Source: Perna viridis
Lineage: Eukaryota
Assembly: GCA_037379345.1 (NCBI GenBank)
Contig: CM074513.1
Location: 18,414,001 to 18,478,000 of the forward strand
Length of the DNA stretch: 64,000 bases
Direction of reading: 5' to 3'
Translations under genes and position numbers: made by a program
Notes under the pieces: model-generated
Databases searched by the model: none
What the model was told of the DNA's origin: nothing
What the model saw: only the letters and a program-made list of their open reading frames with translations
In this document: one piece after another, positions 9,055 to 61,807 of the stretch
Layout: each line of letters opens with the position of its first letter
Numbering within the stretch: the stretch's first letter is position 1

Positions 9055-9179
9055 AAGCTACTACGCAGAGAGAAGACTCATCAGAAGATGAAATCAGTTA
9101 TGAAATGGACAGACCCACTATCCTGAGAGAGCTACAAGTGATTCTATCGGAATATCCTGACGATGCCCAGATTATAAGG
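9055..9179 (+). pseudogene. Copy A exon (EDSSEDEISYEMDRPTILRELQVILSEYPDDAQIIR)
   Basis: TTAG acceptor and GTATGT donor; same 125-nt length as 39813-39937. Confidence 0.85.
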
Positions 9180-9723: not shown

Positions 9724-9831
9724 GAGTTAGTTCAAAATGCTGAAGATGCAGGAGCTAGCTGTATCAAAATAATGTATAATGACACAGAAGACCAACCAAA
9801 CGGTACTTCCCCTCTCTGCCAGTATTTCCAG
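9724..9831 (+). pseudogene. Copy A exon, SR1 HATPase motif ELVQNAEDAGA
   Basis: CAG acceptor and GTAAAT donor; 108 nt as in copy B. Confidence 0.9.
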
Positions 9832-10592: not shown

Positions 10593-10740
10593 AGTCCAGG
10601 TATAGCTGTTTTTAATGACGAAATGTTTACTGGCAAAGACTGAAAAGGGATTATCAAAATCTATGACAGTGTCAAGCAGAACCAGCCTCTTAAAGTCGGA
10701 CGATTTGGTCTTGGATTTAAATCAGTGTTTCATATGACAG
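10593..10740 (+). pseudogene. Copy A exon (SPGIAVFNDEMFTGKD*KGI...GRFGLGFKSVFHMT)
   Basis: 148 nt with GTAAGT donor; TGA at 10641 where copy B has TGG. Confidence 0.9.
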
Positions 10741-14900: not shown

Positions 14901-17900
14901 GACTCAGATATGAAACCTGTTTTCAGAGTTTCGAAGAACGACGTGACAAAATCGGGGACCGTTTACAATGTGTTAAAGGATGTTACCTCGCTCATGAAAA
15001 ATGACGATATTTCATACATTAGACTACCTTCACACTTCATCGACATAGACATACAAATCTTTTAATACGTAACTCAGCTGTTGCCAAGCTTTGTTCCAAA
15101 ATGTCAAGAACAAAATGTGTCATGGGTGATTTCTTGGTCAACAGGAAGACGTTCCTTTGAATTGGCTAAGGAACTCTCTGAACAAGGAGCAATTCCCGTG
15201 GGAAGTGTCGCCGTACCTGTTTCAAGAAAGGGGGAAGAAGTCACATGCTTCCGTAAAATGAAAAATCTACCTGAAATTGGATTTTACAAAAGTAGTTATA
15301 TTTTCTGCTTCATACCTTTGCCAGAGAAAATAAATCTTCCTGTTTATATCAATGGTTGTTTTAATGTAGAACAAGACCGGAAGAGAATTTTGTGCCATAA
15401 CGAAGACGACAAAGGTACAATCAATACTCAATGGAATGATAATATGCTGGGGGATGTAATACCAAGTGCTTATTTGGATCTACTGGTTTCAGTCACGGAT
15501 AGACACACCAAGGCTGCACTCGAGGACAATTATTGGACGTTATGGCCAAAACTTACCGATGGACCAAGGCAACCTACGGACTTGTTAATCGAGTCCTTTT
15601 ATAGAAGAATCTTGACAGAACCTTATCCACCAGTTTTCTATCGAAAACAAGAAGGGAAATTAGCCAATGTGTGTTCTATTAAAGATTGTATTTTTCTTGA
15701 ACCATCCTTTCGTTGTTCAGATATAATTGGTGATTACGCTTTTGGGTGCTTATCAAAGTTTTTTAGTAATGACAGAGGTCGTGAACGTGAAGTAATGGAC
15801 ATGACAGTGGAGTTGTATGAACGATTTAAGAAGACCTGTGGTGAAAATATCAAAGCTATTGAAGTTTGCATGATAAAAAAACAGACATTCTTTGAATACT
15901 TCTTTTTTCCGAATTTAAGAAACCCATATTGGGATAAAAGAGACATGTTTGAAATGAGAAATGCACTGGTGAAAGAGGCTTTAAATGATCCTTCCCTCCG
16001 TTTGGTGGCAAAGAACTATGCGTGTATTCCGGTAAAACCTGTGAAGGAAAATATCTTGCGAAAGCCAAGTGATTTGATAGACGAAAATGGATCAGTCAAG
16101 GCACTTTTTGATGAAAGTGATGATAGGTTTCCTTCAAATGATTTCCAATCTCACTCAAAGGAGTTATTGCAACTAGGTATGATGAATACACTTATTCCAT
16201 CTACAATTCTTGTAGAAAGGGCTAAATCGGTGTCAGAACTGACTTTTGAGAAAGCTGTTTTGAGATCAAATGCAATTATGCAATAACTAGATAAGAATTG
16301 TTCACATCATTCTGACGTAAAACAAATATTAGGAAAAGTTCCTTTTCTTCATGCGATGAAAAGACCTGAAGACTGGCCGATCAGATGGAAAGCTGACGAG
16401 TTTGACGATGAAGAATTGTTGTCACCTTCGGAAATTTATCGCCCGGTAGACAGACATACAGTTGGCTCTGTTGGATACATTGTAAGAGACTTGACAAATT
16501 GTCCAACTTTAGAAAACGCGTTGAACTTTCTGCAGTTCAAAGGGGTTAGTTTAACAGTTTCACAGCTTGAAATCTTAGGCGAAGAAAACTTGAATATTTC
16601 AGATAATCTGACGGGAATATACAATGAAATGTATGCTAAATTGAATTATTTATTATCAAATGAATATCCTGATACAGACATTGAAAAACGTATACAGGCA
16701 TTAAAATATCGAAATGTTATTTGTTTATCATCAACAATAGTACAACCTGATCAGGTGGCTGGTACTATTATTGGAGATTGCTCCCCGTACTTGTACAAAA
16801 TGGATTTATCAAAATATGACGCCTTGTGGAAACAAATGAAAATCCCAAAGAAGTTTGATAGCGACAAATTTATTGCTTGGATCGACAAGATTTGGAATTG
16901 TAACAAAAACATGAAGATGCAGGAAAATGAGGTATTTGGCACGGTGAACGTACTAAACAATTTATGTAATATTGAAAAGGGAACCTGTATAAAGGAGAAA
17001 GAAAGGTTGGTTGTACCGGACGAAAATTGTTTTTTACAGCCAATATCAGAAGTATGTTTCGAAGACCGATACGTAGGGTATCTGCGGGGAAGTAAATCAG
17101 CAAAAATTATTCATCCGTATGTCAATCAAACTATTATCCACACACTAGGAATCATGTCAAAGAGGCAATTTCATCTGTCTAAATATTCAAGCGGAATAAG
17201 AACCCCATTTGGCCAGAAGGAAAAACTTACGACGCGGCTTAAAGGAATATTATCAGCTTATCCTCTTAATCATTCTGTAATGAATGAACTACTTCAGAAT
17301 GCTGACGACGCGGGCGCGTCCGAGGTTCATTTCGTCCTTGACTGTCGACAACATGAAGCGGTACACATATTTGATGACAGTTGGAAATCCTTGCAAGGAC
17401 CAGCTCTGTGTGTTGTAAATGACGCATGTTTTTTCAGAAAAAGATTTAGAAGGAATCCAAAGCCTCGGAGAAGGCAGTAAAAGTGATGATCCGACAAAGA
17501 CAGGCAAGTTTGGCATTGGTTTTAATTCTGTCTATCACTTAACGGACGTTCCATCGTTTTTATCAAAAGGACCTCAGACACCAAATGGTGGAACATTTTG
17601 TGTTTTTGATCCCCACTGCAAATATGTCTCCCTTGCAGAAGAGTGCAGTCCAGGTATGCAGATTCAAAATCTTAGTATCTTTGAAGAAAGTTTCAGAGAC
17701 ATTTACAGTTCATTTTTGCAAAAAGAGTTACAATACAAAGTAGGAACGTGCTTTAGACTACCTCTGAGGACAAAAGAAATGGCAAAAATGTCTGAAATCA
17801 AAAGCCAAGATATAACCGTAGATGATGTTGTTCATTTGCTAGAACAGATGGAAATCGATCTTGAACGCAGCTTGCTATTTTTAAATAGTATTAAGAGGAT

Positions 17901-20900
17901 AAGCATATCAAAAATTAAAGCCGACAGTAAGGAATTGACAGACACAAAGACTGTTCAGCTGGAAACGGGACAAAGCGATGGACAGAGGAGACGGGAGTTT
18001 TTGACATATATTAAAGAAGCCTCACTTTCGATGAAGAATGGGTGCAAACAGTTGACAGATATCAATTACTCAGAAGTACGACACCAGATTAGCGTCAACG
18101 GAAAACAATGGCATGTTGTTGAAGGATTTGGTTTTCCTGAAACGTCATCTTTGTCGGGTAGGCTAGTCAATGAATTTTCTAAGACTATAGTATTTTACCC
18201 AGAGTAGGAATAGCTACATGCATCCAGGAAACCAATTCCAAAGATGGTAGGGCATTTTGTTTATTGCCAATGCCGGTAAAAACGGGTTTGCCAGTGCATG
18301 TGAATGGTCATTTCGCACTTGATCAAAACAGAAGCAATTTGTTTGGGGGTACACATGAAAATGATATAAGATTCATCTGGAATCGATGCTTGATTGAACA
18401 AACAGTTGCAAATACATATGCAAGCTTGCTTCTGTTCCAAAAAGAGTTGCTGCACCAAGACGTAGACCGACAATCATTGTCACATTTCTTTAAAAGTTTC
18501 CCAATTTATCGTGATGCATCAGAGTTCTGGTGGACCGAGCTTGTCTACAACACATATAGATGGATTTTCAAAAGAGAATTACCAATATTCCGAATTTGCC
18601 CAAATTACATCGTAGATACTTGCATGGTACATGAACCTGGGAGAATAAGACGAGACACAAATGTAAAACCTTTACAATGGGTTTCCCTTAGAACATCAGA
18701 GGGCTCGTTCAATGCGGTTTTTGACCATCTTTGCATTTATTTTAAGGAAAGAAAGCTAAAGGTCAATGCAAATACTTTAAGATATGCAAAACATGACGAT
18801 TTTTCGACAAGTCAACTGTACTACGGTCCACGCTACAAATCAAAGGAAGAAACCACATGCTTATTTGACAAAGAAGAAGAAATTCGAAATATCTTAGTTA
18901 ACTTGGGTATGAAACTTATTTGTACACCTATTGATGTTTACAAGAGCATCACAGATGGTTGTTCAGAGTTCGTTCATCATAAGGGCTACCAACATGAAAC
19001 TAATCCCAATGGCATTTGTATATGTCCAAAACGTATAAGTCCAGCGTTCACAATCGAGTTTTTAAAGTCGTGGAATTCTGATGCTAAAGATAAATGTTGT
19101 TTAGGTGATTTACCTTCCAAATTGTCAGATACTATTCTGGATCGAATCTCAAAGGTTTTGTCTCTTTTGCATTTTTGTTTTAAGGCAGATCAGTTTTCAG
19201 CTACAAATTTGACAAACGTACCGCTTCTTATAACCAATGAAGGCAAATTGAAAGCGTTCAACGAACAAAATTCAGAAATTTTGTCCGCTTATTGCGATCT
19301 TTTCCCTTCGTCAAATGACTTGTTTATACACAGACATGAAGTCAATTTATTACAAAAATACAAAAGTATTTTCAGAGCTTTAGATGTTAAAATTGTTTTC
19401 GAGCTCTTGCCTAAGTCTTTAGAATCTAAAGTTTTTAAAGGTAGATCGAAAATGCCGTTTCCCACACAATCGCGTCTTATAAACAATCAATGGCTTCGAA
19501 TGTTTTGGGATTGCTTGAATGACTTTGAATGTATTGACATGTTAATTGAATGGTGCCTCCTACCTTGCAACTTGCCTGGTGGACAGAAAATGCTTGTTTC
19601 TCTGGATCATGCGCATGTTGTTTGTGACGTAGACAGTTTTAGAGAAATTGAAACGGGGCCAGTTAGAGCATTTCAAAAGAGGACGCTTGCTGATATTTTT
19701 ACTGATCTACGTCTCCCAATGCCAGATGAAGTGCAGAAACATTCTGTCCACATTCGTAATTTCATTGCTTCATATAGAAAACCCAGCAAAATTGTTGATT
19801 GTCTATTTTGGAATAAGGACTCTGCTTGTTGGCCATCTCTTAATGACAATGATTTTTTTTAACGAGATTTTGAATTATTTTTGTTATGAGATTGACGAAC
19901 TTGGTGATGTAGGTAAAACACGGTTGCGAAGTCTGCCAATATTTGTATCCTTGACAGATCCAGTACAGACATTCTCTTTGGAAAGTGTCGACAAATGTTT
20001 AGTAGTCAAGTCTGAAATACTGACCATATATGATGGATTGCAATCTCTCTGCAACTCAACAAACACTTTACTAATAAGGCATAATGCATATCACGAAAAA
20101 CTTTATCCTGCCTTAAAATGCATTATTTGTTATAATGAGGGTTCCACCGTCCACAGGCATCCATTGTTGAAGTTGTACACGAACTTCATTCTGCCAAACT
20201 ACAGCAAATTTCCGAATTTTGAAACACAAATGCGTCATTTAGAGTTTGTTCGAAATAAACTCTTAACTTATAAGGATATACTATGTATTTTGAGGAGTTT
20301 GAAGTTTATAAAAGATCCGAAATCAAGTGAATTGAAGCTGGCTGGTGATTTTTATAGTCCACACAAAGCGCTATTTTTAACATTTTGTAAGGCAGATTTA
20401 CCCCCAGAACCATTTTGTCGACCAGAGTGGAAGAAACTCATGGAACTCGGCGGAATGAAAACTGTGGCAAATAAAGAGTTATTTATTCAATTTGCCAAAC
20501 AAATACAGCAAAGTGGTAAAACTGACAGTTCAGTGGCACAAGCGAAGGTACTTATACAAAATGTCTTTCAGCTTGACAATTTAGAAGAGGAGTCAAGTTT
20601 TCTTGACGAAATCAGTAAAATAGATTTCATTCCTTCATACACTGTCAGTACAGATCACTCGTTCGTTTGTGCTCAGTATGCAAAAGATCAGCTTATTTCC
20701 TTTCGTGAATCAGTTCCATATAAATTTGAAAGCCTTGTTTGGACTATGCAAAAACTATTGCCAGATTATGCAACCAAATGTAGTGAAATAGTTCTTCGAA
20801 AGATGCATGTACAAATAAAACCGAACACCGATAGTGTCATTTCTCATATACACCAAGTATGTGAGGCTCTGCAAAAACAAAGTAACTGCAATGCTACTGC

Positions 20901-22915
20901 CAAGGGTATAATAGAAACCTTTTACAAGTTCCTAAGTAATGCTGCTGTTACTAAACAAGAAATAGAAATAAGATTATCGCAAACTCCCATTATCCCAATT
21001 CTTGAACATAATATATTTGCTGAGGCAAAATATGTTGTCCTGAACCTGAAGTCCGAAAAAGAAATAAAGCCATATATCCTTAAAGCTTCAGTTTATTTTG
21101 GGAAATATTTTGAATTGTTCAAGGCATTAGGTGCTGCTGACGAAGTTTCCATAATACACTACTGTAGGACATTAAAACTAATTAAACAGAAAATCCGTGA
21201 TTCTACAATGATCCCTGACGAATTGGAGATTGTTAAAAGGGCAATTCAAGGAGTTGTGGTGTGCTTGTCTAGTGGACAAGGTGATAAGCTGTTAAAACAG
21301 AAGGATACCACTCTCATTTTATACTTATTGAATGAAGACAAGAAATTAAAACCGTCGCAAACATTGGTTATTGCAGACAAATCTGGAATACGGAGTCGCT
21401 TAACGTCACAAAATAAAATTGAATTTATATGTAAATGGACAAAATTGGGAATAACCCAAACAAATTTCGATCCCAATGAAGTTATAATGAGATTACCACC
21501 TACAATGCGTCCACAACTGCTTTCCGAAGTCGTGATGGAAGATCTCATCAACCTCTCACCACCTGTTCACAGTACTGTTGTTAATGATTTTAAAGACTTT
21601 ATAAATGGGGAACTTTTTAAGTATATTGTCAATAGACTAGTAAAGACATTCCAGCAAATTCATTCAATCCAGATATCAAAAGAGGAATTCGACAATATAT
21701 TCTCTAATCTAAAATCTCTTGAGGTGCATGCGTTGAAAAGTATTGAAACGGTATTGATACATGAAGGTCAGCGATTAAATGGAAGCGAATCTCAGCAACA
21801 AATGTTTTATAACAGAAAGCAACACATCCTATCTAAAAAGCGAAGTCGATATTCTTTTAAATGCTTTTAGCTTAGCAGAGGTTTTGGTTGATTTATGCAA
21901 TAAAAAGGTACAAGATAACCATATTCAGGCTTGTTTATCGCTTTTTCGGAGTCAGGTTAGTGATATTGAGTATTTCTTGGATGATAAAATACATGCAGTC
22001 AAAATTGATTTTAATTTGTCTGAAATTTCCTTGATTCCTTCCCCGGGAAACGCCCTGGAAGAAGATCTCATTGACTTACTGATTGCAGACTTCACAACTT
22101 TCGAGGTTGGGGAGACTGTGGTGTATGAACACTACGACGATAGTGGAGAAGCCTCTGGCGATGCGATCTTTGTTTACATTTATGTCAAAATTGTCCACCG
22201 CTTTTCTGATATAAGTGAAAGATTTCCTCGATACATCGTTGATATAGGAAACAGGGAAGAAAGGACAGTGAAATCACACCGACTGTACAAGCTTGTTAGA
22301 TCATCGGATACGCCAACAACAGACATTGAACTTTTTTCCGATGGACATTCGCTTCGTGAATGTGGAAGGCATGACGATATCAAACGGGGAGTAGAAGAGA
22401 CACTTGTTGACGCGATGAAACTTGGTGAGGAAGAATTTAAAATAATTCTGAGAAGGTTATTGAAACGCTGGCATCCAGATAAAAATCAAAATTCAAGATT
22501 TTGCGCTGACATATTTATGCATATAAAAGAATTTGCTAAAAAGTTAATGTCGAAAGATATAGACGCGTTAAAAGTAGATTCGTATAGATACCCAAACACA
22601 TGGCATGATCATGTTGAAAGAGCAACTGTAGTGAGGAAATCAATAAAGGTCTTCACGTTTGATGTCGATGGTTTTGCTTCTGGTCTCGAACAACATTGGA
22701 GAAGAAATGGGACATTTTCTAGGTTTGGTCATGGAGGTTGTAGAGACTATCAAGCATATTCTACTTCCATATATAAAAAGTATGTCCCTAATCCCCAACC
22801 GCGTATGGCAAGAGTATGGATTCAGCAGGCAAAGTATGATATAAGAACTGCTTGTAAAGCTTTGGAGGGAGCAGAAAGTACTTCATATAATTGGATTTGT
22901 GTTTTGAGTCAACAG
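11982..22915 (+). pseudogene. Copy A giant (~10.9 kb) exon: SR2, SR3, J domain and start of HEPN
   Basis: TTCACAG acceptor and CAG|GTCAGT donor; chain of long sacsin-like ORFs broken by stops and frameshifts. Confidence 0.9.
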
Positions 22916-23443
22916 GTCAGTTTTATAAATTTGTAATATTCACTTGATGTAAACTTACAGTTGTAATCAAGTGATTTTCAAAAAATCCCTATAAAGTTAA
23001 AATCCGTAAAGCCAGTGTGAAAATAAAAAAAAAAAACCTAGGTTTTCATAATGTTTGAATAAAATCATCAAACTGTGTTCAAGAAAACAGAACAATTTTT
23101 CAAACGAAAATTGTTTACATGTACATACATTCATTGGTGTCAAGTAAAGATATTAAGGTAATAACACATCTGGGGACCGGTATCACAAAATTTGATCGTA
23201 ATATTATTCTTCTATCTAACACTATTTTCAACTTTACCGAAGCAACGTTTGATTAAAACGGTTTAATAATAAAGCGTCTTTTTCATAATAATTTTGTAGA
23301 TCCAGGTAAGAAACTTACTCATGGAAGTGCTTGTCTACCCTCAATGTGGTGGCCTCAAATGGTCTTAGATCGCAGAAATGTATTATTACTCGATGATGCT
23401 TACTATCTTACTTTCCTTGAAAAATATTTATTTTATTTTTTAG

Positions 23444-23716
23444 GCGGCTGAGAAATCCTTGAAGTCAGTACAAATACAGAAAGATGAAAAGAGACTTGAA
23501 AATACGCATTCGCTTATGTTGTCCTTTGTTAATGAAGCTGTTAATCAGGAGCTAAAACAAAATGCTGATGAGCTTGAAAGAATTGTTGGGAATTATTCAA
23601 GAATGCGGTACCCAAGAATGATTGATTACCCAAACCCTCCAGGAAATCTCTACTCAAGAGAAGATGCTGAAAAAGCAATCGATTTGGCTAAAGCAATAGA
23701 CGAGAAGTATTTTTAG
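23444..23716 (+). pseudogene. Copy A terminal exon, HEPN domain
   Basis: Polypyrimidine-TAG acceptor; AAEKSLKSVQ..THSL..YSRMRYP..DAEKAIDLAK. Confidence 0.85.
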
Positions 23717-29134: not shown

Positions 29135-30176
29135 TCACGTTTCCCTCCAATTCTTCCAATTCCTGGGGAAAACATAATTGGCGGCGCAAAAATATAACCC
29201 ATGACTTTTGCTCGGCGCTATGGTTTCATTCATGTGCAGGAAATTGCGGAAGCCTAATCTCTGAGTCACAAGGTCCAACTGAAAGTGAGTGTCTATAAAC
29301 AGGCATGGCTCATCGAGAGGTTTTACTGGTGCCTGAATATCTGCGCCCTCAAAGGTTGAATATCGTTCGTATATCGCAAACCCCTGTTGGTTAGCAGGGC
29401 TTACACGGCGAAGCAGACTGGCCACTAGCAACCAGTTTACGATGCAGACCATGATTTGGCGGCTTGAAAGTCGGCCGATGCACCGGGTTAGCACTATAGT
29501 TGTCCACATAATACGTTAGATATTGCATCTCCTGCTCTAAAAATCCGCTTTGTAGAGTACGGTACACTTCCGTATCTAACACATAGGCTAGCAAATCATC
29601 AAGACTTTTACAGTTCAACCATGACGCAAGTTTGTTAAGTGACCAATTTACCAGTAAACACCAATGGTGGATGTGTTCGTCATCAAAGGTACAACCAATG
29701 GGATGATCTCAATGTTTGAAGGCAACTGAGGATGCTTGGATCTCTTGGGTATGACATTCCCAACATGTTGTGGTCGGATACCAAAACCATGGTAAGTGAG
29801 TCTTCTGTACATGGCGCCTCATCTTGTCCGTCGTTTGTAAGCCGCATACATAACACGTGCGACTCCGAGGTATGGATACAGCTGCTTGGCCATCATCAGA
29901 ACACGAGGCGCTTGTAGAAGGGCAAGCTAACATGCATGCGGCCTTTACATGATCCTCCACTACTCGCTGGTTCTCGTTGGCCTGTGAAACCGGCACTATT
30001 CTCATGTTGTCTTCTGCTTGGGATGTGCCGCCAGCAGATTTCTTATCATCTATAGCCTCATCGCCTGAACCTAGTTCATCCGACACAAAGAATTCAGCGA
30101 CGTCCCAGTCTAAATCCTCAGAAGAATCCGTACACCAACTTTCTGGACAATTAAGGGAAGGTTCATCTTCTTCCAT
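29135..30176 (-). pseudogene. Retrotransposon ORF3: acidic N-terminus, zinc finger(s) and N-terminal part of a TatD-family nuclease
   Basis: Three ORF pieces join through one stop and one frameshift: CYVC..HVQKTHLPWF..CWEC, then FIDTHFQLD (29273-29299, TatD DxHxHLD-like) and ANYVFPRNW. Confidence 0.7.
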
Positions 30177-30282
30177 GAACCAATCTCAATCTAGAATATA
30201 TAAGCAGCTTAACATGATTAATTATATACACACAAATATTTACAATATTATATACAGTTGTAATTGCGGTTTCTCTGCCTTT

Positions 30283-30465
30283 TACTAATCCCGCAACGGC
30301 GCCGGTAACCGCACCGGTCTACCTCGTCGTGTTTTAGCCCATGAACTAAGCTATTGGAATGTTCATCGGATTCAACGGAATAAGCGTCCTAAGTTTGCTC
30401 AATTCATCAACGTTACACGTGGGGGACGACGCTCCCCTCTGATCAAAACAACCGATTCTTTCAGG
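30283..30465 (-). pseudogene. Gypsy pol C-terminal tail
   Basis: Ends TRRGRPVRLPAPLRD*, a typical post-integrase basic terminus. Confidence 0.55.
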
Positions 30466-30866
30466 TTTGTAAGAGAACTGGAGAAGTAAGGGTCGGTTAT
30501 AAGAATGTTGCATGTTTTGCAACTTTTAATACCACATTTTGATATGGTACAATGTGGTTCGTCATCATTGTAGTCAAAGATATCGTTTAAAGTGATGGAA
30601 CATGGTTTGATAATATTAAAATAGTCAGAATTTTTGTACTGGAATAGATGGTCTGCAGACTGAACGTGTGATTGGGTGCTTTTAGTGGAATTGGTCGGGG
30701 CACTTTCCATACCAGAAATGAGTGTGCTAAGATTCCCATCTGGGGACACCACATACTTACAAGACAACAGAGTGTCCGATCTGCTGTCAGGTTCTGACCT
30801 TTTTATACTGGGCGACGTCCGAGACAGTTTTTCTTTCATTCCTCTTGTTAAAACCATTAATTTTAA
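30466..30866 (-). mobile_element. N-terminal fragment of a Penelope-like (Naiad-type) ORF embedded in gypsy pol
   Basis: MVLTRGMK...KPCSITLNDIF..HCTISKCGIKSCKTCNILITDPYFSSSLT, the Cys-rich segment preceding GIY-YIG in PLEs; unrelated to RNase H. Confidence 0.65.
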
Positions 30867-32473
30867 GAGTTCATATAAACAAGCTGTAAGAGAGACAAAG
30901 TTACTGACATGGTCACGATGGCAATTGAGAAACCCTAGAAAACTCATTAATTCTTTACTGATGGTTGGCACTGGCCAATTTTGTACTGCCTCGGCTTTGG
31001 AAGGCGCTATTTTGATGCCATCGGCGCTGACCAAGGAATTCAACCTCAGACCGGAAAAGTGTTTTATGCCTCAACTTGAGATTGTATTGTCGAAAGCGAA
31101 GCAGAGCTAAATGGAGATTTTTAATGCAATGTTCACCTCTATGTCATCGAGGTAAACGAGAACTTTAGAACATGTCAAACCTAGGAGGACCAATTGCATT
31201 GCTCTTTGAGATGTGGCGGGAGCATTGCAAAGCCCCATTCCCATTCGGGTGTGTTTAAATAATCCGCAGCGGGTTATGAAGGCGGACTCCTTACAAAATC
31301 GTCATCCTCAAGTTGTATCTGATAGTATCTACTACCAACGTGCAGAAAGTCAATGCACCATCTAACAGATCCGTTCCGTTTGCGGACTAGGACAGGAGCG
31401 GATGCCCATTCTGATGTAGAGGGCCGGATAACGTTAGCTTCCAATTATTTTTCAACGTGCTTCTGTTCAACATCTTGGAATTCCCACGGGGATCTTCTCA
31501 TCCGTTGTTTCATAGGTATCTTATGTCGTACCTTGGTAAGACAATCCAGGTCTAGATCATGTTTAGAGAAGACATCACTAAACTCACAGAGAAGTTTCTT
31601 AAGTTGTGCCTTCTGATTCAGTTAAATGTATCAACGGAGCGGTCAAACAAATCAACCAAATGCGGGGGAAGTTGTGTCCCCTCCTGTTCCGGCAAAGGCT
31701 GGGGGAGTTGTGTCCCCTCTGCCATGGTTGACCCCTCTATTTTTCGGACGAGTAATGATTCTGTTGCTGAACTGTGCAGTACCTCCTTGAACTCTTGAAC
31801 TCTTCAGCTTGTCCAATGCAGCGTGCTTTCTTTAATTTGACGAAATGAGCAGAGTCATTTATGAACCGCACCATGCAACTTTGTCCACTTCCGATTACGC
31901 TAGACATCAAGACGGCGGGTATGGTGCTTGTTGACTCCAATATGTAATCTGCCGGAGGTGCTGGCTCAACCCTCACTGATATTGTAGTAACACTGTTAGA
32001 GGGCAGGGTGATACCCTTGCTGACTATGGCCGTTGACACACTGGTCTTGCATTCCTCGACTATTCTATCCTTCATCGTTCTGTTAAATCACGGTACCGGC
32101 AGGGATATTAACTATCGCCTCGCAAGAAAATCTAAACCTAAAACGAGTTGATAACATATTTTTATCACACAAACGTCCCAGTTCACGGTTACTTCTCCAA
32201 TCGAAATGGGTACTCCTGTGAGTAACCGACCAAGAGGCCGCTTGCCTATTCCAGAAAGTTGTACCACTTCAGCATCTGATGGTACATCAGCAAACAGGGA
32301 TTCATCTGCGAGAGTAATCGTAGCAGCAGTATCAACCACTGCTGTAACCCTGGTTGATTCGATAACAACTTCTAAAACCATAGTCCTCCCTTTTACGATT
32401 CTACGGGCTATTATATCCTTTAGGCTCGTTGTGTCTTGGGTCTGGTCCAAGCCTAATGACCTGACTCTCTGGT
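30867..32473 (-). pseudogene. pol: Gypsy pol: aspartic protease and reverse transcriptase
   Basis: AVVDTAATITL...LVLGLDFL; SEWASAPVLVRK..VRWCIDF; MGLCNAPAT; LVYLDDI (YLDD 31143-31154); VSADGI..AVQNWPVP..FLGF; many lesions. Confidence 0.9.
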
Positions 32474-32480
32474 GTTTAAA
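32420..32480 (-). promoter_or_regulatory. -1 programmed ribosomal frameshift signal (UUUAAAC plus H-type pseudoknot)
   Basis: Heptamer at 32480-32474 at the gag end; the -1 frame is the protease frame; after a 6-nt spacer, GAGUCAGGUC/GACCAGACCC and UUAGGCUUG/CGAGCCUAA can pair. Confidence 0.75.
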
Positions 32481-34320
32481 TCCTGATTGTGCCGCGGGGA
32501 CGATGTCCCCTGCTGTAAATTAGGCGATCGTATGAACGTAGAGCGATCTGGACTCGTGGATCTAGCAAATTTGTTGTGTGGCGATGGTGACCTGGGAGAT
32601 TGTGGACTTTGGCCCCTTTGATTTGACGGGGACCTACCTCTATAGTCTGGAGACCTCCCTCTGAATTCTGATCTGGGTGGACCCTGGGTGGATATGCCGT
32701 GCTGCCAAATCCTCGTCCTGGACTTCTTTCTCGATTAAGAAGCTGAACCATCAGAGAGACTAGTTGTTTGATGTTTGTCTTTAACTCCTGATTTTCCTGT
32801 GCACTACTTGAGTTGTCCAGGGCACGAGGCCCTTGAACTTGTTGTTCCTCTTCAGGTGGCTCTGCAAACTTAACTTGCCTGTGACTGTAGGAGTTTCGGT
32901 TGCTTGGAGCAGGGCTCCTATACCAATAGATAGCTCGGTGGTTGGCTATTGATGATTTAACCCATTTAACAGTTTGGTTTACCGTTTTTGGATTGCGCTC
33001 TATCACATACCGTGCTGCTCCCATTTCTTTGCGACCCTTTCGAAAAGCTTCCGTTGCTATTTGGTCTACAATATCTTCAGCATCAGCTCGATACCCATCT
33101 ACCGCCAAGAATTGAACCCTTTCTGCGAATTCCGCAAGAGATTCTGAGTCGTCCTGTCTTACAAACTGTAGTTGTCGTCTAGCATAAAAAGGTTCTTCTT
33201 TCCTGCTAAAACGAACTTTCAAGAAACGTCGCAGCTCGTCAAATGAATGTTCTGTTCCCATGGTAACACGTCGACCATATTCCAAAGCTCGATCGGACAA
33301 ACAATCAAAGAGCCGACTAATTTTTTTAGGTTCATCCCAACCTTTCCTGTGTGCAGTGCGTTGAAATCTGTAGATGAATGACTCCCACGTCAGTGCTCCT
33401 GACCCTGTGTATAATGGTAACTTAGGTGGTTGTGGGCTGTGACTGCGATCACGACCTTCAGAAGCTACAGGCGCCACCAGATTGAAAGCACGATCCATTG
33501 AGCTCTCACTGTCAGACGATACATATTGACGTCGTTTCTTTGTTCTACCCCGACTTTGTCCATTTTCCTTGCTAGAGGTGGTGTTTTGCAGATCAGAACC
33601 AAGTATAGGAGGTACATTTTTTTCTTGTTTGCCTGCATTTGGTGGAGGTTGACTTATATCAATTATCATTTTATTTGGAGGCAATTGGGGAGGAACTATA
33701 GTATGATTGTCTGTAGAGGGCATCATATGGCGTTGGTTAACATGTTGGGTGTTACTAGCCGGTATATGGTTTGGCGGCATAATGTAAACATTGTTGGGCA
33801 GATATGAGCCATCAAGATTGTGGTCTAATAACATCTTACCTTGGTCACCGCGACTACATTGAACATTGGATTGAGACGTCGGGGTAGTTGATCTCCGATC
33901 TCCTAATAAATGCATACCCTGATGTGATGGTTGTGGAATCGAGGCTTGTGGCCTCTGACTTTCTCCTTGTAAATCATGTACAACATGATTTGATGGCTGA
34001 GGAGTCGAGGCTGGTGGCCTCTGAGTCCCACCACCTTGTGCAGGCCCGTTACTCTGTGGGCTGTCTAACTGTAAGTTTGAAATTGCTAATGCAAACTGAT
34101 CACCTGGTTTTTAACTTGTACCTGTTCCTGAATCAGGGTTAGCCACTACAGTTCTGTTGGGAGACCCTACAGAAGTTTCATCTAGGGATGGTAGGAGCAA
34201 ATCGACATTTGATTTTCGGGTACTGGACCTTGGCTTAACGCCACCTTCGCCAACTTACACATTCTCCTTCCTGCCGCTTCATTTTTTCCTTTAATCAGGC
34301 TATCAACCTGACTGGCCATA
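32453..34320 (-). pseudogene. gag: Gypsy gag (capsid plus RS/SP-rich tail)
   Basis: PPKLPLYTG..WESFIYRF..GWDE..LSDRALEY..RQDDSESLAEFAERV capsid pattern; a frameshift near 32690 hides a RGRSPDYRGRSPS..SPRSPSP..DLN tail; 5' start approximate. Confidence 0.85.
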
Positions 34321-34858: not shown

Positions 34859-34876
34859 ATCCTGTCGACGACGCCA
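34859..34876 (-). promoter_or_regulatory. Primer-binding site, tRNA-Ser-like
   Basis: TGGCGTCGTCGACAGGAT; its complement ATCCTGTCGACGACGCCA matches the eukaryotic tRNA-Ser 3' end ATCCTGCCGACTACGCCA at 16/18. Confidence 0.8.
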
Positions 34877-35288
34877 GTCGAGTGACTACACAACAATAAT
34901 CATTAAATACACAAAGTAAATATAATAACTCACACAAATAATCCATCTTCTTGTGAATCCAGACAACAGAACAAAAATAAGCACACACGATGATCAGAAT
35001 ATATACCGGAAACTGACGTCAGTTAAAATTGTGTACTGGTTCCAGTGGAATTAACTAAGTATTAGGCGCTACGCACCACATTATTGACGGCTGGCTTCCA
35101 TGCGAGCTGGTATTGACGGCTAGCTGCACGCTGGTTACCGTTCACATTTAAAGTTATTAAGGAGATCATAATATATAAGTACAATCAATAGACACGTGTT
35201 AACCATATTCACCTTGACATTTAAACCACAACAATATATGTAAACAATTGTGACTTTAAAAGACCTGTACATGTACAATGTAGCTACA
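34877..35288 (-). repeat. 5' LTR (~410 bp)
   Basis: Starts TGTAGCTAC on the minus strand and abuts the PBS; terminal CA imperfect; no partner LTR to confirm the boundaries. Confidence 0.6.
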
Positions 35289-35299
35289 GGGGAACACTT

Positions 35300-36706
35300 T
35301 ATCTTGAAGTTTTTTTAGCTTGTTGCTTACTGACAGATCCTTTTCCTTACTTGGAGGTTTGATATTCACATTCAGCACTTGTATGCATAAAATCACAGGA
35401 AATATCTCTGATTATCTCAGCACCAGTATGACTTATGTGGATCCCTGTGGGATCATTTACATCATATAATGCTTTATTTGGTACATTATTTGGTGTAAAC
35501 TCTGACCATAAATCAATGAATTGTAACATTTGACTGTTTTTACATAGTTTTCTAATACAGTTGTTAACAAACAAAAGATCTTGAATATAAGCACTCTTGC
35601 CTCTTCTAGGCATAATACTACAAATAACTATTTTGGCTGATATTTTGCCTTTACCTTATCTACACAATTAGTGAGATTACCAATGACCTGTTCTAACTCA
35701 TTTTTGAAGGTGCTTATATCATTTGTACCCAAGTTCACTATAACATTTTTCACCAATTCTGGTTCCACATTTGAATCTGACTTGTCCAATAAAATTTGGA
35801 CGTTTTCTAATGTGGTTCATGAAATTGCAAAGATATATACATTATCACCAGCTTGTACAAAGTCAATTCTTTTACAGTTTGACGCACCTAGAATTACCGA
35901 CTGTTCAGGAATGGAAATTGGCTCATTTTCATTTTCCAGCACGGATTCAATAGTTTTATTGAGTACTTGTTTGTCGTGCTCTGTATGGACGTTCGCTGTA
36001 GTTTTGTCATCCATACGATTGGCGCTCCGTTCTTCCCGAATATCATAAATATAATCGCCGTATATCTCTCGATCTTCCGCCTCGCATTGGCGATGCCCGT
36101 GGCCCTCCACGTCGCAACGGTAACAGACAATGTATATGGACAGTCTTTAGTAGTATGTGTCAGACTGTTGCATCTATAGCATTTACGTTCCGGTTGAGTT
36201 CTACGTGTAGGATTTTGGATGCATATGTAGGAGGGATGGTCGGTTTTTGAGCAACAGAGACATTCTGTTCTGTTATTGTCAGTAATTAGGCACATATCGA
36301 ACCTTCCAAATTTAGTAGTTTTTGGAATGACAGGGACACAATTCATAAGTTGGACATAACGAGTGCCAGTTTCTATATTTGTTTCTTTTTACTATGCTCC
36401 TTTTCATAGATCATTGGACTACTTCTCCATACTTCGATATGTAACCACATATTGTCATATCGCTCATTTCACAAGGATATTTGTATAGATGTAATCGACT
36501 TTTCATCCACAAACGTTTTTAGTTCGTTTAAGACTACAGAATGGGTTGTACCTTTGATGAAGCTTGTACCAAAATGTACTGGCAGGTGTCTCTGGATTTT
36601 GGCGTTGGGTGCATTTTCGACCGCCATTGTGAGTGTGAGTATAAATAATACTCAGCGTCTCATTCACAGGATCACACATCCTTAAATTAAGGTCCAAATT
36701 TGCCAC
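35300..36706 (-). mobile_element. Degenerate non-LTR retrotransposon ORF1-like gene: RRM-like region, CCHC knuckles, SGNH esterase
   Basis: ISKYGEV..GTRYVQL..IP; CLCCSKTDHPSYIC, CYRCNSLTHTTKDC and a third frameshifted knuckle (GHGHRQC); VILGASN, VNLGTNDI, ICSIMPR, FIDLW and DPTGIHIS. Confidence 0.75.
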
Positions 36707-37645: not shown

Positions 37646-39812
37646 ACTTCGTCTGAGTGGACACAAATTACCTTTTGACATTTTAATAAGTAATAAATTG
37701 TAATTTTATGACGGACGATAAAAGCCCGCCCTGAATGCAGCTACGAAAGGACTAATATCATATCAAAATACTCAATCAACTGAAAATGAAGAAACGTTCC
37801 AAGAGTTTTGAAACTGTATTCAAAACACTTATTGGGCGATATTAACCCATTTTCAATTAAACCGTTTTACTGAGGGACTACTGTTGTCTTCAGATTATCT
37901 GGAAAAACAGAAGATGGTGCAGACATTGGAGATTGGACTAGTACAGGATATGTCCGAATGATAAAACGATTCTATTCTGCAACAGGACGTTTAATAGGAA
38001 TCAATTAATCTATGTTAATTTTTTTTCGTTAAGTGATATGACTTATTTAGTCGGTGTGATCATAATCTCATATCATATTTAAGAAGTCAATTAAGACATG
38101 AAAGAAGCCTAAAATGGGAAGAGACAGACGAGGCCGCAAGAAACGCACAAAGCAGAAAAGTGAGTGGGAAACCAATATGCCCCAACGTGATACTTCTGGC
38201 CTGTAGATGAGAAAACCTATGGCAATGCACATTCCGAGACGCCCAATGATGCTGAACAAAAAGAACAGAGAAAACATGAGAATAAAGGTTACAGACCACC
38301 AATTCAACCAATGAGCATTTGGAATGTACGCAAAAATAGTCCTACGCAGAAATTACCCCTTTTCCTCATAGTGCTGTGAAAAAAGTTCGCATCTCATTTA
38401 AAAAATTTAAACAGTTTCTGAAAGGAAAAACATTTCTGTACATTTTATAGGTGCATTTTGGTTCTTGTGATGTGAGGCCCAATCTCCATAATGATTTATA
38501 AATATATCCCTATCATGTGAAAACACTGGGATTTCCCATGCTATTTATAGACACTTCACTTCCGGTGACCAGTACTGCACTGCAAGTCTGCTAACCCCAC
38601 ATGCCATTCTGAGGATTGTGAGCTGACATATGTAGACTTATGCTGATATATAGTCCTCTGCAGGTTAAAGTTAAGGTAAAGTCCAGAGAAGCCATTGAAT
38701 ATTGTGAAATTAGCATAGAAGCTACGGGAAGTGGAATTAGTGGTTTCTAGCCTAAAAACAGTGACAGATAAAAAGACAGGTTCAGCGTGATGAAAGAACA
38801 GCTTCTGCAACGTTATCCATGGTTATTAGTTGTTCTGAATTTGTGCAGGAAGGTGTTATAGGATATGGAGGTAAGGGCAAAAATAAGAATAAAACTGATC
38901 ATTAAATTCTGGTTAAGAAATAAATCACGGAAAGTCCATTTCATCTTGTTTTGTCAAGGGCTGGTCATTTATGTCGCATTTTGTTACCACGAACGATAGC
39001 GAGGAATTTAACAACATATAAATGGCTAGCCCATGGTATAACAATGATAAAAGGAAGTTTCCGTGATTCATTACGATTTTAATAGGACTCGTTTCTTCAT
39101 ATTTTTGAAAAGGCGCAGCCTATGAGTTGCTAGAAATGCTGGTCATGTGTTTGTCACTTTTTCACCATTGTTGCTGTCTGTAGAGTTTCGAAACACGCAA
39201 TATTAGACTTTACAGTGCAAAGTGTATTTTCGAAACTGATTTGTTTTCTGACATGGGATGTTTAAGAGTGCAAATTCAGACAAATTCTTATTCATTTCTT
39301 ATTATTTGCCGAGAATCTTGATATCTATCTTATAATACGATCTTCATATTTAAAAAAAATATGCGTGGTAATTACTTTAAAAAAAATCTTGTAAGAGGAG
39401 ACAAGATTCTGACGTTCTGCAATTGACATGTTCAGAAAGCAAAATATTTGTCGTCTTGCTTGATAAATACTTTTAAATGCAGATATTGACATATGTGTCT
39501 TAATGATTTTATTGATATCTATTTTAAAATGCTGGCATTGAAATATCTTTCATAAATCTGACATTGATATTTGTTTTATACTGCTGGCATTGACATTTGT
39601 TTTAAAATGCTGGCATATATAATATCAATTCGATATATAGTAATTATCAATCAAATATTAAAAACAAACTAATTTCTTAATATTTCATCTCAAGGGAAAG
39701 CTTGCATAAGCTTGGATTTTCCACAGATTACATTTTTCGCAGTCGTCGTGCTTCAAATGTAACTTAAAGACAACAATTGTCGTGGGAACTAAACTTACCT
39801 TTGCTCTTTTAG

Positions 39813-39937
39813 AAACTGCGATACAAAGAGAAGACTCATCAGAAGATGAAATTAGTTATGAAATGGACAGACCAACCCTCCTGAGACAGCTACAGGTGAT
39901 TCTATCGGAACATCCTGACGACGCCCAGATTCTCAGG
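39813..39937 (+). pseudogene. Copy B exon
   Basis: Paralogous to 9055-9179, AG/GT flanks. Confidence 0.85.
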
Positions 39938-40631
39938 GTATGTTTCACATGTACTTTCATAAAAAAAAATTTTGAAGCAGGGAGTACACGTATTTTAAGA
40001 ATAGTATGTGTGGTTTTTTTTTTCTATTGTAACATATAGGATAGATTATAAAACTTAAATTGTTTTCAGACATTTCTACATTAACAAATATTTATATAAA
40101 AATGTAAATCATATAACATAAAGTAATCAAAAGATTATGAAATAAGAATTTTTTAGTACCAAAATAAAGTCGCAATACAAAAAAAGAAAGCTACTGACTA
40201 TCTAAAAACGTTTATTTACCTATAAGACCTAGAATAGGTTTATCTTCTCTGAAACTCACATGAATTACTACGAAAGTTATTAAACATTACACCAAATATG
40301 GTTTTGACCTGCGTTGTAGTAGGAAGTAAGATTTAAATAGTCAGTTAATTGGTTTTGCTAAAGGATTAATTCTTTAGCCTAATCGCTTTGTCTCTGGTTT
40401 GTCCCCGACCGTTCTAGGTTTCCAATGTCGGTGGCAGAGTAATTTTTTTGTCAGTCAAATAATGCTCTCCCGTTACACAACAAAAAGAGTCCGTTACTGC
40501 ATACATATGAAATGTTTATTGGAGTTTTTTTGTACTACTTCGTCTTCTCATTTTTTATTGAGGGGAGACACCTGAATACATTTCTTCCTTCCAATTATAA
40601 TTCGTGGTTTCATTTAACGTTATCTTTACAG

Positions 40632-40739
40632 GAATTAGTTCAAAATGCTGAAAATGCAGGAGCTAATTGTATCAAGATAATGTATGATGACACAGAAAAT
40701 CAACCAAAAAGTACTTCCTCTCTCTGTCAGTATTGTCTG
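40632..40739 (+). pseudogene. Copy B exon (ELVQNAENAGA)
   Basis: Paralogous to 9724-9831. Confidence 0.9.
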
Positions 40740-41399
40740 GTATGCACATTTTTATTGTCTATTCTTGGAAAACAGTTATAACTAATATACTTAGTTTCAT
40801 TTGAACTTACAATTTTGTTAAACTGCGCGTCTATAATTTTTATCAGTAATGGATATTCTTCTAGGGAGGTTATGTACATCATGTTTCATTTGTTATTTAT
40901 TTTGTTTATAGGGTTTGCATGTCTCGTCACGTAACTCAATTGTTTCACGAGAATAGACCCAAATGCATTGAAATTTTCAAGTTACAGAGCATTGAGTACA
41001 ATATTAAAAGCAAAACACTCTATCTTTTACAAGTAACTATAAAAATTACACGTATTTATTTCTACATAGTAAAAGTTAGAAAAAAGCATAAACTAAAGAT
41101 TTTGTTACTTCAGAATTAAACAATAAAATACATATCGATATTTGGAATTCAATACTATAAAATATTTATTTGAAATCAATCATATTTTCATAATGATACT
41201 GTTAAACTGTATTTACATTAAGTTGGTGATTTTAAAAGATCAAATAGCTTATACATTTTGCTGTAAACTTTTAAACACCTATTCTGTTTTAAACTTCCGA
41301 AACACAATGTCGTATATATGTTCATAATAAATACTTATCCATGACAACTTGATTTCTCTTGCTTTAACGTGACTGTGTGGTTTAAAATAACTTTAATAG

Positions 41400-41547
41400 A
41401 GTTCAGGTATAGCTGTTTTTAATGACGAAATGTTTACTGAAAAAGACTGGAAGGGGATTATCAAAATCTATGACAGTATCAAGCAGGACGAGCCTCTCAA
41501 AGTCGGACGATTTGGTCTTGGATTTAAATCAGTGTTTCATATGACAG
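41400..41547 (+). pseudogene. Copy B exon (GRFGLGFKSVFHMT)
   Basis: Paralogous to 10593-10740. Confidence 0.9.
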
Positions 41548-42291
41548 GTACGTAGATTTGTGTGTATGATCCAAAGGATGTTTGGAACAAGGCATCCGAA
41601 AATTAGTGTACAACTACATGATTTTTTCGTGAAAATATTATGTTTATTTAGATGAAATCATCAGTATGCGGTAATATTTCATCGATATCTGATATTCTCA
41701 GTATCATGGATGTCTTTTTCTGCAAACAACCGGCATCCTGTCGAGAAACCATTGTGCGCCTATTCTATTGATCTTTTGTAGATTCCTAGAGACATTTCAA
41801 AATAGATGATAAATCGCATTTTTAAACATTCCTTTTCGATTCACAGATGTTTAGCACTGTGAGCTAGCACCGCCTGTCCGTGTTGTATAGTAAAAAAGAG
41901 AATTTGCTCGATTGATCAAACGCTTTTATCCAGAAGTCTTGAACTGTAAGAAACAGAACATTTGATTAGAATCTATCTATGTTATTTTGAATTTCTTGGT
42001 GTAATTATAATCTCATAATTTCATGAATATTGGTCGACTTTCTTCACCTCATCAACCCAATAGAGTTTGAAATAAAAGACAAGACAGACACGAAGGAATT
42101 ATGTTTTCCTTGATTTGTATAAGACTTTGAAAACTATGAACACTTGAACTTCCCAATTGTCAGTAAAACTTTCATCTGATTGACCGATATGAAGTGTCCG
42201 ATATAATAAACGACCTCATCGTTGTCTTAACTTCTTGACTTGTCTATAAAAGTCTAACTCATATCCTAGTAGTTCTATAAACAACATACAT

Positions 42292-42944
42292 GGTGCACTA
42301 TACAGTTACATTAAGGCGCACTGTTTTGCACACCAAGTTACCCCCGTCAAGTTTTGTAAAATTTAAAAGTTAAAATGGTGGATATATTGTTTGAATGTAG
42401 ATAAGCATTTATACATAGACAGATGTAATATATGTTATGGTAAACAGGTGTAATTTAAATGAAGAATGGTAACCGGAACATTTCAGTCCCCTGCCGTATT
42501 AGGTTCTCTCCTCAGTATCAGCATGGCTGATTTTCAAAATACCTTTTTTCGCAAGAACTTTTGGAACTAAAATTGTGGGAGAATGAATCGAAAAGGGTCT
42601 TATTATTTTTACCACTTTTCATGCTTTCATCCTGTGGTAGTGACTCAGTGCCTGATATTTTATAAAACATAGTATTCGGCTGTTAGTTTTAGAAAGGCAC
42701 CCCTGCTGTGTACTAAAACTCAGTATTTTTTTCAGTATGTTACAATGGATACTGGATTTTATAACAATAATCACTAAATTACTTATAAATGACTTGAACC
42801 TCCATACACCAAGCATTCAAAAATATGCATTTTTTTTTATGACAAAACACTAGAAATTTCTGTGCAGCGCACTGCCTCAAAACAATTTTATTTCAACAAA
42901 TTGAGACCAAATTTTCAGAAATGACTTAACTGTATTGTACTACC
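42292..42944. mobile_element. Non-autonomous DNA transposon (MITE) in a copy B intron
   Basis: Absent from the paralogous copy A site (~11418); imperfect TIRs GGTGCACTATACAGTTA / TAACTGTATTGTACTACC. Confidence 0.75.
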
Positions 42945-43467
42945 TTAGATGGATTTCTATTAATTCGGTCACTTACGATTTAGCGTCAAATAATCCGTCA
43001 GGAACTGAAAATTTGTTGTAGCAACTCCGTCACACTATAAAACAAGAACAATGATCGTAAACAGACCGATAGTATATGTCAAATGGTAATCATTTTGACA
43101 AACATCACTGACTTGTACATAACTGTTGCAGTTTTGCTGAAAATGTCAAAAAGTAACAATCACTAACAAGCTGCAATATTTGAAATATATTATCGTATTT
43201 TCTCTTGCTTGACACTGTGTCGGGGATGAGAACTTTTGGTTTCTACAAATGGTAAACTATTATAACCCTGTCCAGTTCTACTATTCTCTTATAGCACTTG
43301 CAATAAAGACTATTGTTTTGTCTGGATTATAATGATTATTTCTTAGTGTTTTTACCATTAACACGTAAAAATTCCAATCCATCACCAAATTGAATTAGTG
43401 TGGTTTGTAAGTTTAACTTAACTATATATCTTAAGTTAGTGCACATTTTTTTAATTCTTTTGTATAG

Positions 43468-44992
43468 ATAGTCCAGTGATTGTAAGTGGAAAAAAACTCC
43501 TGGTTATTGATCCAATAAGATCCGAGAAAGGAAAATGAAGTCGGGGAGTACTCATTGAAAAAAGTGATGAAGCACCACGATCCAAAGTCAACACTAGCTT
43601 GTATAATGAACTGGTTCGGATTTAATGTCGAGGCCTTAGAAAACCAGTTTTTGTACAAGGGTACATTATTCTGGTTCCCTCTTCGACGGACTGAAAGTAG
43701 TCTGTCAACAACAATTTATACTCCTACGAAGGTAGAAATGTTGCTGCATTCATTTACAAAAGAAGCCACATACAATCTTCTATTTCTAAAACATTTGGAA
43801 GATAGAAATCTTTGACAAGGGAAGAAAACAAGAACCATACTACCAACTTAAAATGATTGGGGTAGATGCAGCAAGCTTTAAAGTGGAAAGGACACAATTC
43901 AAAGACAAACTTGCCGGTTTAGAAAAGGAGTTGCCAACGGAAATCATCAAGTCAAAGTCTGAAGTGGTGATTAAAACTAATGAAGCTGAAGAAAACTTCC
44001 ATGTTGTCATTTTTATTTGGTACAAAGACAATCCCAGAAGAGATGAGAGACTTACTTTATGACAAACACTTACGCTACAGCCCCTATACAGGTATTGCAT
44101 ACTGTACAAAGTCGAGCCTCGACAGAAAACCGCCTGGACACATATTTTGTTTTTCACCGACCAAAGTATGACTGGTCTTCCCTATCATGTAGATGTTTTT
44201 TTTGCCCTTGAGCACAACAGACGTCATTTAAAAGAGGCGGCTTCAAACTGCGAAACTAAGGACAGTGATAAGTGCCTGCTGTGGAATGACAAAATGATTT
44301 CCGATTTGTTACCGGAGACATTCAGGATACTTATACATCAGCTGAAGGCAAAAAGTGAGACTGGTAAAAACACAACAGAGCTAGTCAATGATGTATATAA
44401 TTCAGTTCCCAACCCAGATATGTTCACTCATACTGGACACCTATGTTGGAACAACTGTACAACATTTTTTCAGATGATGGATTTTTCTTTTCCAGTCAAG
44501 AAAATGGAAAATGGATCAAACTGTCAGAAGCACTAGTTGCATATTTTGATGACAGAGTTAACACAAATATTCAATTAACCGTAAAGAAACTTCTCCTGGA
44601 CTCCGGTACTGACTTAGTTGAGCTGCCTGATCACATGACACTAGTTCTGAAATGCATGAAACGTAAGCCCAATAAGATAAAACCAGAATTTATTGCCAAT
44701 CACATGAGGGAAACAGATTGTTGGAAAGATTATACCTACAATCAGAAACTACAGAAACTACAAGTTTTGGAGTTTGTGCTTAATATTGGTGACTTAAAAT
44801 TTCTCAACAATATCCAGATTTTCCCTTTGAAAAGTAGAACATTTATTGAGTTCCGATACAGGACGAGGGACAAGATATTTGTTACCGAAGACAAGGTGTC
44901 CAATCTTTTCGTTGGTTTGGAAGATAGATCCGTGTCCAGGAATGATGTGTCAGAAGCTATATGGGAAAAGCTTGGAAACATAGCTGACGAAG
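43468..44992 (+). pseudogene. Copy B exon completing SR1 (missing in copy A)
   Basis: TAG acceptor; DSPVIVSGKKLLVIDP, GTLFWFPLR, TGLPYHV..FFALEHNRRHL; GAAG|GTAAGA donor; several frameshifts. Confidence 0.88.
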
Positions 44993-45322
44993 GTAAGAAA
45001 CGCAAGGATACTTTAGTGCTACTATGATTCAGCAATTTATTCGTTTAATCAGAGTTTCCTTTTGGTAAAAGAAATGTTGCATCGCAATTTTAAAGCCTTC
45101 ATAAAAATTGCATAAATATAAATATGTGATCTTTAGTCTCACCAATCAATCCTGCTTGTTTCGTATGTTGAAGAATTAATTCTTTAACAGAGTCTGGTAT
45201 ATTATATAATAACCACTTTGAATTACACGTTTGTAGAAATGAAACAAATTCAATAAAAGCTGGTACAATAGGTGTCATAGAAATCTGTAGAAAAATGGTG
45301 TTTAGGTTTGTTTTCTTAAGAT

Positions 45323-61760: not shown

Positions 61761-61807
61761 AGTGCAGATCGAAAGAGCTACTTGTCTGGTCTGTTCTTAC
61801 TCGTTTG

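Follow-up and report, generated by a model that had tools for sequence, protein, structure and literature searches.

Third open reading frames (ORF3) that encode an enzyme are known from Juno and Vesta, gypsy-like retrotransposons of bdelloid rotifers, in which the ORF3 lies after pol and has an RNase H-like DEDDy fold (PMC5408684). The retrotransposons described here resemble them in being gypsy-like, in carrying an enzymatic non-env ORF3 after pol with 3′-5′ exonuclease chemistry (predicted in our case), in keeping the catalytic residues intact, in showing family-specific gain and loss, and in that the function of both ORFs is putative. They differ in that the fold is the TIM barrel of TatD, with a TATDN2-like gene as the putative donor, a fused zinc-finger/helical domain and a predicted AP-endonuclease capacity. 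The word "tatd" has 0 occurrences in the main text of PMC5408684, and no TatD-type ORF3 appears in the accessible portions of PMC6238403, PMC8556966, PMC6431247 and PMC6338049. Among the papers listed by searches of the open literature, none was seen to report TatD cargo in retrotransposons; subscription journals, supplements, Repbase, Dfam and GyDB could hold one.

TatD enzymes are 3′-5′ exonucleases and AP endonucleases, those of Group II being two-metal enzymes (PMC10085689). TATDN2 degrades the RNA of R-loops and requires its N-terminal arm for binding (PMC10711561), and a TATDN2-labelled gene has been described in a squid Hox cluster (PMC6962438). With animal TATDN2 (PMC10085689, PMC10711561) our ORF3 shares the HxH motif, the equivalents of E91, E201 and D203, a long N-terminal extension and, in our tree, a sister-clade position (99/98), but it is intronless and multi-copy, resides inside LTR elements and has longer branches, and its extension holds zinc fingers together with a helical domain. 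QatD of the QatABCD system is likewise a Group II TatD recruited to a setting of genetic conflict (PMC13434339); however, it is bacterial, anti-phage and single-domain, and our cargo scores far below the cut-off of its profile. Finally, our ORF3 shares with the env of errantiviruses (Drosophila gypsy type) the position after pol and, as a candidate, a splice acceptor before the ATG. It differs from env in lacking a membrane segment and any match to fusion proteins; the same genome does have a true Baculo_F ORF3, in a distant gypsy lineage (L158).

The window (the whole 64,000-nucleotide stretch of DNA analysed here) contains a decayed Ty3/gypsy copy on the minus strand at 28.8–35.1 kb, in which a 5′ LTR is followed by a tRNA-Ser primer site, gag, protease, reverse transcriptase (RT) pieces, a pol tail and ORF3. 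All features of this element given below are on the minus strand. The 5′ LTR (34879..35080, about 202 bp) starts with TG, lacks the canonical CA end, and is the same LTR as the one after TatD at the 3′ end of three siblings, with 91–93% identity. The 18-nt primer-binding site (34859..34876) is complementary to the 3′ end of the host tRNA-Ser(AGA) plus CCA; the primer-site pattern with this tRNA gave 36 genomic matches versus 0 for the control pattern. A second exact copy of the site lies at G000:C15:24300264-24300281, where there is no tRNA gene. We also observed a tandem array at G000:C14:8565124-8615345, with units of about 870 bp that each hold a tRNA-Ser(AGA) and a tRNA-Trp gene.

The gag region (32479..34110) is a stop-to-stop frame of 544 aa whose PF03732 match (E 1.6e-4, 22.3 bits) is slightly below the cut-off of 24.1, while the aspartic protease (32115..32519) matches PF13650 above the cut-off (E 1.9e-5). 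The RT pieces (30861..31537; tblastn E 1e-41) are frameshifted and keep YLDD. Downstream of them RNase H and integrase have been deleted from the window copy; integrase fills that gap in the sibling at C3:53.34M. At the deletion lies a 400-bp high-copy repeat foreign to the element (30465..30866, no strand assigned), with 38 copies among the matches listed at 95–97% identity and 983 first-look candidates. The pol tail (30282..30464) is common to the siblings and ends in TAG TAA (stops at 30287-30282). Thus gag, protease and RT are found in the window in the gypsy order, and the full order of gag, protease, RT, RNase H, then integrase is found in relatives.

The preliminary description gave a Ty3/gypsy context and placed an ORF of roughly 345 codons about 110 nt after the pol stop on the same strand, and both proved accurate: upon minus-strand translation the ATG is at 30176, the spacer from the pol-tail stop is about 105–108 nt, and 30176 to 29135 makes 347 codons. 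A pyrimidine-rich candidate splice acceptor ending in TAG (30191..30203) lies 14 nt 5′ of the ATG, and the same site is present in two siblings. The N-terminus of ORF3 (29870..30176) is of acidic low complexity, as had been noticed (D/E make up 38% of the first 45 residues), and the model of the relative P0018 shows its counterpart as unstructured. Next come C2H2-type zinc fingers and a helical domain (29306..29869), and then the start of the TatD barrel, about 50 residues (29141..29305). The motifs CxxC..HxxxxH, CWEC, FIDTHFQLD and ANYVFP, all reported earlier, were recovered in the translation. Decay of this copy was also as described, with one in-frame stop at 29709-29711, one frameshift near 29452, both within the zinc-finger/helical part, and a degenerate HxH.

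The barrel is truncated, as stated in that description, and the 3′ end of the element, including the 3′ LTR, is lost at 29141. Since similarity to the sibling copies ends at this position, the stop codon at 29135-29137 is already outside the element, in foreign DNA. Pfam found no TatD match in the window ORF3 pieces alone, because only about 50 barrel residues remain. A profile built from 63 database relatives matched the zinc-finger/helical part (E 1.5e-40 and 5e-4) and the TatD start (E 3.2e-12), and the Mytilus protein P0190 was matched over residues 8–351 of 591 (E 1.8e-67). The window copy is a poor, dead representative of its lineage.

Three siblings of the window element were found at 87–91% DNA identity. 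The one at C10:17.28M, 90% identical, has the pol tail, an ORF3 with a full TatD domain and then the LTR; its TatD matches PF01026 with E 3.5e-33 and 115.5 bits against a cut-off of 27, covering positions 1–238 of 253. The TatD identity proposed for ORF3 was thereby borne out through the full-domain sibling, which is far above the cut-off, though not through the window pieces by themselves. The sibling at C3:53.34M has gag, protease, integrase, ORF3 and LTR, and that at C3:57.53M has gag, protease, RT, the C-terminal half of TatD and LTR. HxH is intact in two siblings, which indicates that its loss is decay of the window copy; one metal ligand is altered in the C10 sibling. Purine tracts precede the 3′ LTRs in siblings and related copies. 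A pol match 5 kb upstream of the C10 sibling was considered as the pol of that copy and rejected, as it is part of an unrelated element nested there, which has LTRs of its own.

All three siblings are broken, and no copy of the window's family with both LTRs was found. Such copies exist in a younger TatD family: two on C15 have paired LTRs of 97.7% and 95.0% identity with TG...CA ends, and 4-bp target duplications, and enclose pol and ORF3. RNA reads gave the empty site of one paired-LTR copy (5, 9 and 14 reads skip 7726 nt with a 4-nt overlap), with the flank being a repeat, so that these reads may stem from other copies of that repeat. A circularly permuted TatD-family copy (L079/L072/L078, G000:C3:1018737-1025585) runs from the TatD C-terminus through LTR and internal region to ORF3 as far as mid-TatD, which fits an integrated cDNA circle opened within TatD, or a partial tandem.

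A genome search with PF01026 gave at least 43 matches (56 candidates), merged to 37 loci. At 28 of these 37, gypsy gag/pol was found within 7 kb upstream on the same strand (27 within 3.5 kb) and at none on the opposite strand, with pol queries drawn from three of these TatD families; the 28th, on C10, was counted via the nested unrelated element, and its place in the family comes from DNA identity. This is the count of TatD loci downstream of gypsy pol for which the preliminary description asked. The other nine loci comprise one multi-exon host TATDN2, one intronless host-like TatD, one permuted element copy, two with a zinc finger and no pol in 17 kb, and four without explanation. At L047:5245-5997 (minus strand) there is an intronless open TatD frame of 251 aa with no pol upstream, which groups with YjjV; it is probably a TATDN3-like gene of the host, or else a retrocopy.

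An integrase search gave 116 matches, from which 40 without a prior tie to TatD were sampled (the top 20, then 20 down the list); parts of ORF3 were present at 3 of these 40. In the integrase tree, all 21 integrases linked to TatD or the zinc finger fell in one clade of 27 (support 100/96), and none of the 31 outside it was so linked; the tree comprised 58 pieces with 4 short rows left out, and carried long-branch and outgroup warnings. Chance adjacency of TatD and pol was rejected on the strand bias of 28 versus 0 and the single integrase clade. In this genome, ORF3 is restricted to a single integrase clade. It follows pol and precedes the 3′ LTR, it is carried along by the element, and its TatD metal ligands persist even in very divergent relatives. 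That a gypsy clade carries a TATDN2-related nuclease as ORF3 is a solid result at the level of the lineage.

The TatD domain is accessory, being absent in 6 of the 27 clade members. In one of these six, which have no TatD within 5 kb, the region is deleted relative to its sisters; three are one family and two are other cases. The three-copy family seems to keep the zinc-finger/helical part only, on a weak match (E 4e-5). These losses within the clade show that transposition does not require TatD, which would be helpful and not essential. An in-clade family (L130 at G000:C9:32275279-32281202, L135 and L152) has a PHD finger after the integrase (E 3e-11) and an apparent zinc-finger/helical ORF3 without TatD. 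Across 17 loci, distances between TatD domains correlated with those between integrases (rho 0.65, Mantel p 0.0005), and rho was 0.53 once same-family pairs were removed; with RNase H rho was 0.56, and its drop to 0.19 without same-family pairs counts against the reading preferred below. Other gypsy lineages in this genome have other third ORFs, namely BTB/POZ (E 8e-16), coiled-coil and Baculo_F env (E 1e-20), at loci L140, L150, L151; L125, L126, L128; and L158.

In the TatD tree (IQ-TREE, 54 rows, with 5 outgroups only and eukaryotic TATDN1 left out), the cargo formed a clade (99/93) sister to TATDN2 (99/94), with joint support of 99/98; in a FastTree run the support for cargo monophyly was weak (0.52). 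The TatD domain is specifically of the TATDN2/Group II (HxH) type. HxH and the equivalents of Glu91, His127, His152, Glu201 and Asp203 were kept in 126–138 of the 128–139 sequences spanning each position, counts that are biased upward by the picking of sequences by profile; the median identity among the catalytic-residue representatives was 30%. The model of P0018 showed a disordered N-terminus, a confident zinc-finger/helical domain (pLDDT mostly >85, residues 200–390) and a TatD barrel, and it aligned to TatD structures with Z 33.0 and an rmsd of 1.9 Å over 254 residues. The protein atlas gave no usable match for P0018, and the N-domain of ORF3 led there to C2H2 clusters with scores below 0.9. 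In a viral fold library the one clear TatD-like match was from a giant virus. The gene very probably derives from a single old capture of a TATDN2-like host gene and encodes an active two-metal 3′-5′ exonuclease/AP endonuclease.

The host encodes TATDN2 elsewhere, in a gene of its own that has at least 5 exons. An identity of ORF3 with a host TATDN2 orthologue or pseudogene was rejected, since the cargo is sister to TATDN2 and not nested in it, is intronless and multi-copy, and coexists with the separate host gene. None of the outcomes that the preliminary description named as refuting was found at the level of the lineage, whose homologues are intronless and linked to pol and are not intron-containing host genes.

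Among genomic copies, dN/dS of ORF3 was 0.91–1.16 in the window's family and 0.47–1.22 in two others, and that of gag was 0.71–1.02. Because these copies diverged after insertion, within-genome dN/dS cannot show selection; as read from these sequences, values near 1 are the expected decay after insertion, and selection is visible only at depth. The proposed check of selection and catalytic residues thus came out in favour for the ligands kept across relatives, and not for the ratios between genomic copies. Such ratios, together with the TatD losses within the integrase clade, would suit a functionless passenger, whether a retrocopy of the host TATDN2 that LTRs trapped recently or a mere chance neighbour. 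However, this explanation is largely refuted and retains almost no probability: the strand bias is 28 to 0, the linked integrases fall in a single clade, the catalytic residues are intact at 30% identity, the cargo clade stands apart from TATDN2, and the zinc-finger domain is absent from the host TATDN2.

A profile search against 1.84 billion representatives found 1,209 proteins with E-values no higher than 1e-30. Among the best 150 of these 1,209, ten were classed as TATDN2-type by motif and tree (two named TATDN2, one clustering with a named member, four "uncharacterized", two unnamed and one without a name check), and the zinc-finger pattern was found in 78 of the remaining 140. The closest named relative, the Mytilus coruscus "tatD" protein P0187, opens with an integrase tail; its cluster has 24 members from four Mytilus species, and in two of these members a single gene model combines RNase H, an integrase zinc domain and TatD. 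P0053 has an integrase zinc domain fused to TatD, and in Mya arenaria there is a cluster of 13 nearly identical proteins, filed under no fewer than 12 gene ids. Scans of viral and metagenome contigs for related loci gave no confirmed relative, so that, beyond the source genome, element context is drawn only from names and from gene models that are fused. The earlier suggestion that multi-copy TatD-like annotations in molluscs come from such elements was supported for bivalves by the Mytilus "tatD" models with integrase parts. This means that the multi-copy "tatD/TATDN2-like" genes of Mytilus, and probably those of Mya, are element genes, and that apparent TatD expansions in bivalves need re-reading.

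In three families, the window's and two others, a YAG site resembling a splice acceptor stands ahead of the ORF3 ATG. By analogy with env, ORF3 is probably expressed from a spliced subgenomic RNA. In three RNA runs (19–25% of each run covered), one younger family showed almost no reads inside the element, no splice joint and no ORF3 message. An env identity of ORF3 itself was rejected: none of 63 ORF3 proteins had a hydrophobic 19-mer of 2.0 or more that would indicate a membrane segment, and Pfam shows TatD and no fusion-protein family.

The DNA at 29135..30176 is what truncation has left of the third gene in a dead Ty3/gypsy copy. In the lineage this gene encodes zinc fingers plus a TATDN2-related TatD, which we consider likely to act as an accessory nuclease that trims the reverse-transcription intermediates of the element. 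The zinc-finger/helical domain may take the place of TATDN2's disordered substrate-binding arm and tether the enzyme to element cDNA or RNA-DNA intermediates. The predicted enzyme would remove 3′ ends that are damaged or unpaired, as well as RNA left over in hybrids, and this trimming would raise the yield of integration-ready cDNA. These steps, from arm replacement to higher cDNA yield, have in our view slightly less than an even chance of being right. Reverse transcription of gypsy elements runs inside the capsid, which counts against ORF3 acting there. The plain RNA-DNA duplex is the main intermediate of reverse transcription. Human TATDN2 has little activity on such plain duplexes (PMC10711561), which also counts against cDNA trimming.

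It is unlikely that ORF3 has instead a nuclear role like that of TATDN2, such as R-loop resolution at transcribed copies or integration sites, or repair of integration gaps. The sister group of the cargo, TATDN2, is an R-loop-specific RNase (PMC10711561), 20 of 40 proteins have a basic cluster immediately N-terminal to the zinc finger that could serve as a nuclear signal, and the C2H2-like fingers, a lead only at atlas scores below 0.9, would agree with such a role; against it, the host retains its own TATDN2, and the R-loop-binding arm of TATDN2 is swapped for an unrelated domain.

NADAR domains remove ADP-ribosylation from DNA. Two relatives, P0091 and P0102, have a C-terminal NADAR fused to TatD (E 2e-16 and 7e-19; P0091 also has the zinc finger), and from these sequences the fusion points to nucleic-acid clean-up. 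It could also serve to reverse host DNA modification in a counter-defence, in which ORF3 would destroy stray element cDNA or host small RNAs and so avert sensing or silencing by the host. Such a role would suit an accessory, fast-diverging ORF in the env slot with sister lineages carrying other accessory ORF3s (BTB/POZ, coiled-coil); yet a nuclease that destroys cDNA is also costly to the element, and we rate this marginally below the nuclear role. Far less probable is an attack on rival viruses or mobile elements from which the element gains via its host, as with bacterial QatD against phage. QatD shows a Group II TatD put to use in defence (PMC13434339) and accessory retrotransposon domains have been proposed to be antiviral (PMC6338049), but all copies examined are in decay within elements, none of them showing signs of domestication, and the cargo proteins score 29–67 bits against the QatD profile cut-off of 230.

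Trimming of reverse-transcription intermediates is the reading we prefer, and a broader form of it can be put forward tentatively, with a chance somewhat lower than that of the tethering and trimming steps: an old gypsy clade of marine invertebrates may have made one TATDN2-like capture, added a new zinc-finger targeting domain (sometimes NADAR), and thereby gained a dedicated cDNA repair or proofreading function, i.e. a base-excision/3′-editing module. If this is true, that clade takes in many of the "tatD" genes annotated in bivalves and more than 100 database proteins of divergent sequence. The TatD ORF3 is a second, unrelated nuclease fold in the ORF3 slot of LTR elements, and the TatD and DEDDy cases suggest repeated selection for 3′-5′ nuclease activity in retrotransposition. 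For structure-function studies, the cargo proteins also offer a naturally occurring series of TATDN2-like enzymes in which the targeting domain is folded.

The retrotransposon sits between two tandem sacsin-like genes (8927-23716 and 39671-51491, plus strand; PF25794 E 8.5e-49, DnaJ, HEPN), whose DNA is 77–95% alike. Adjoining the 5′ LTR, at 35347-36388 (minus strand), is a zinc knuckle with an SGNH/GDSL-like fragment (Pfam E 0.01–0.11), likely a decayed LINE ORF1 on this sequence resemblance. Beyond the truncation, 27300-29140 matches a low-copy repeat at C3:36.85M (77–81%) and gives a weak hint of a Mutator transposase (E 0.047). A tandem repeat with a 30-bp unit was found at 61343-61822.
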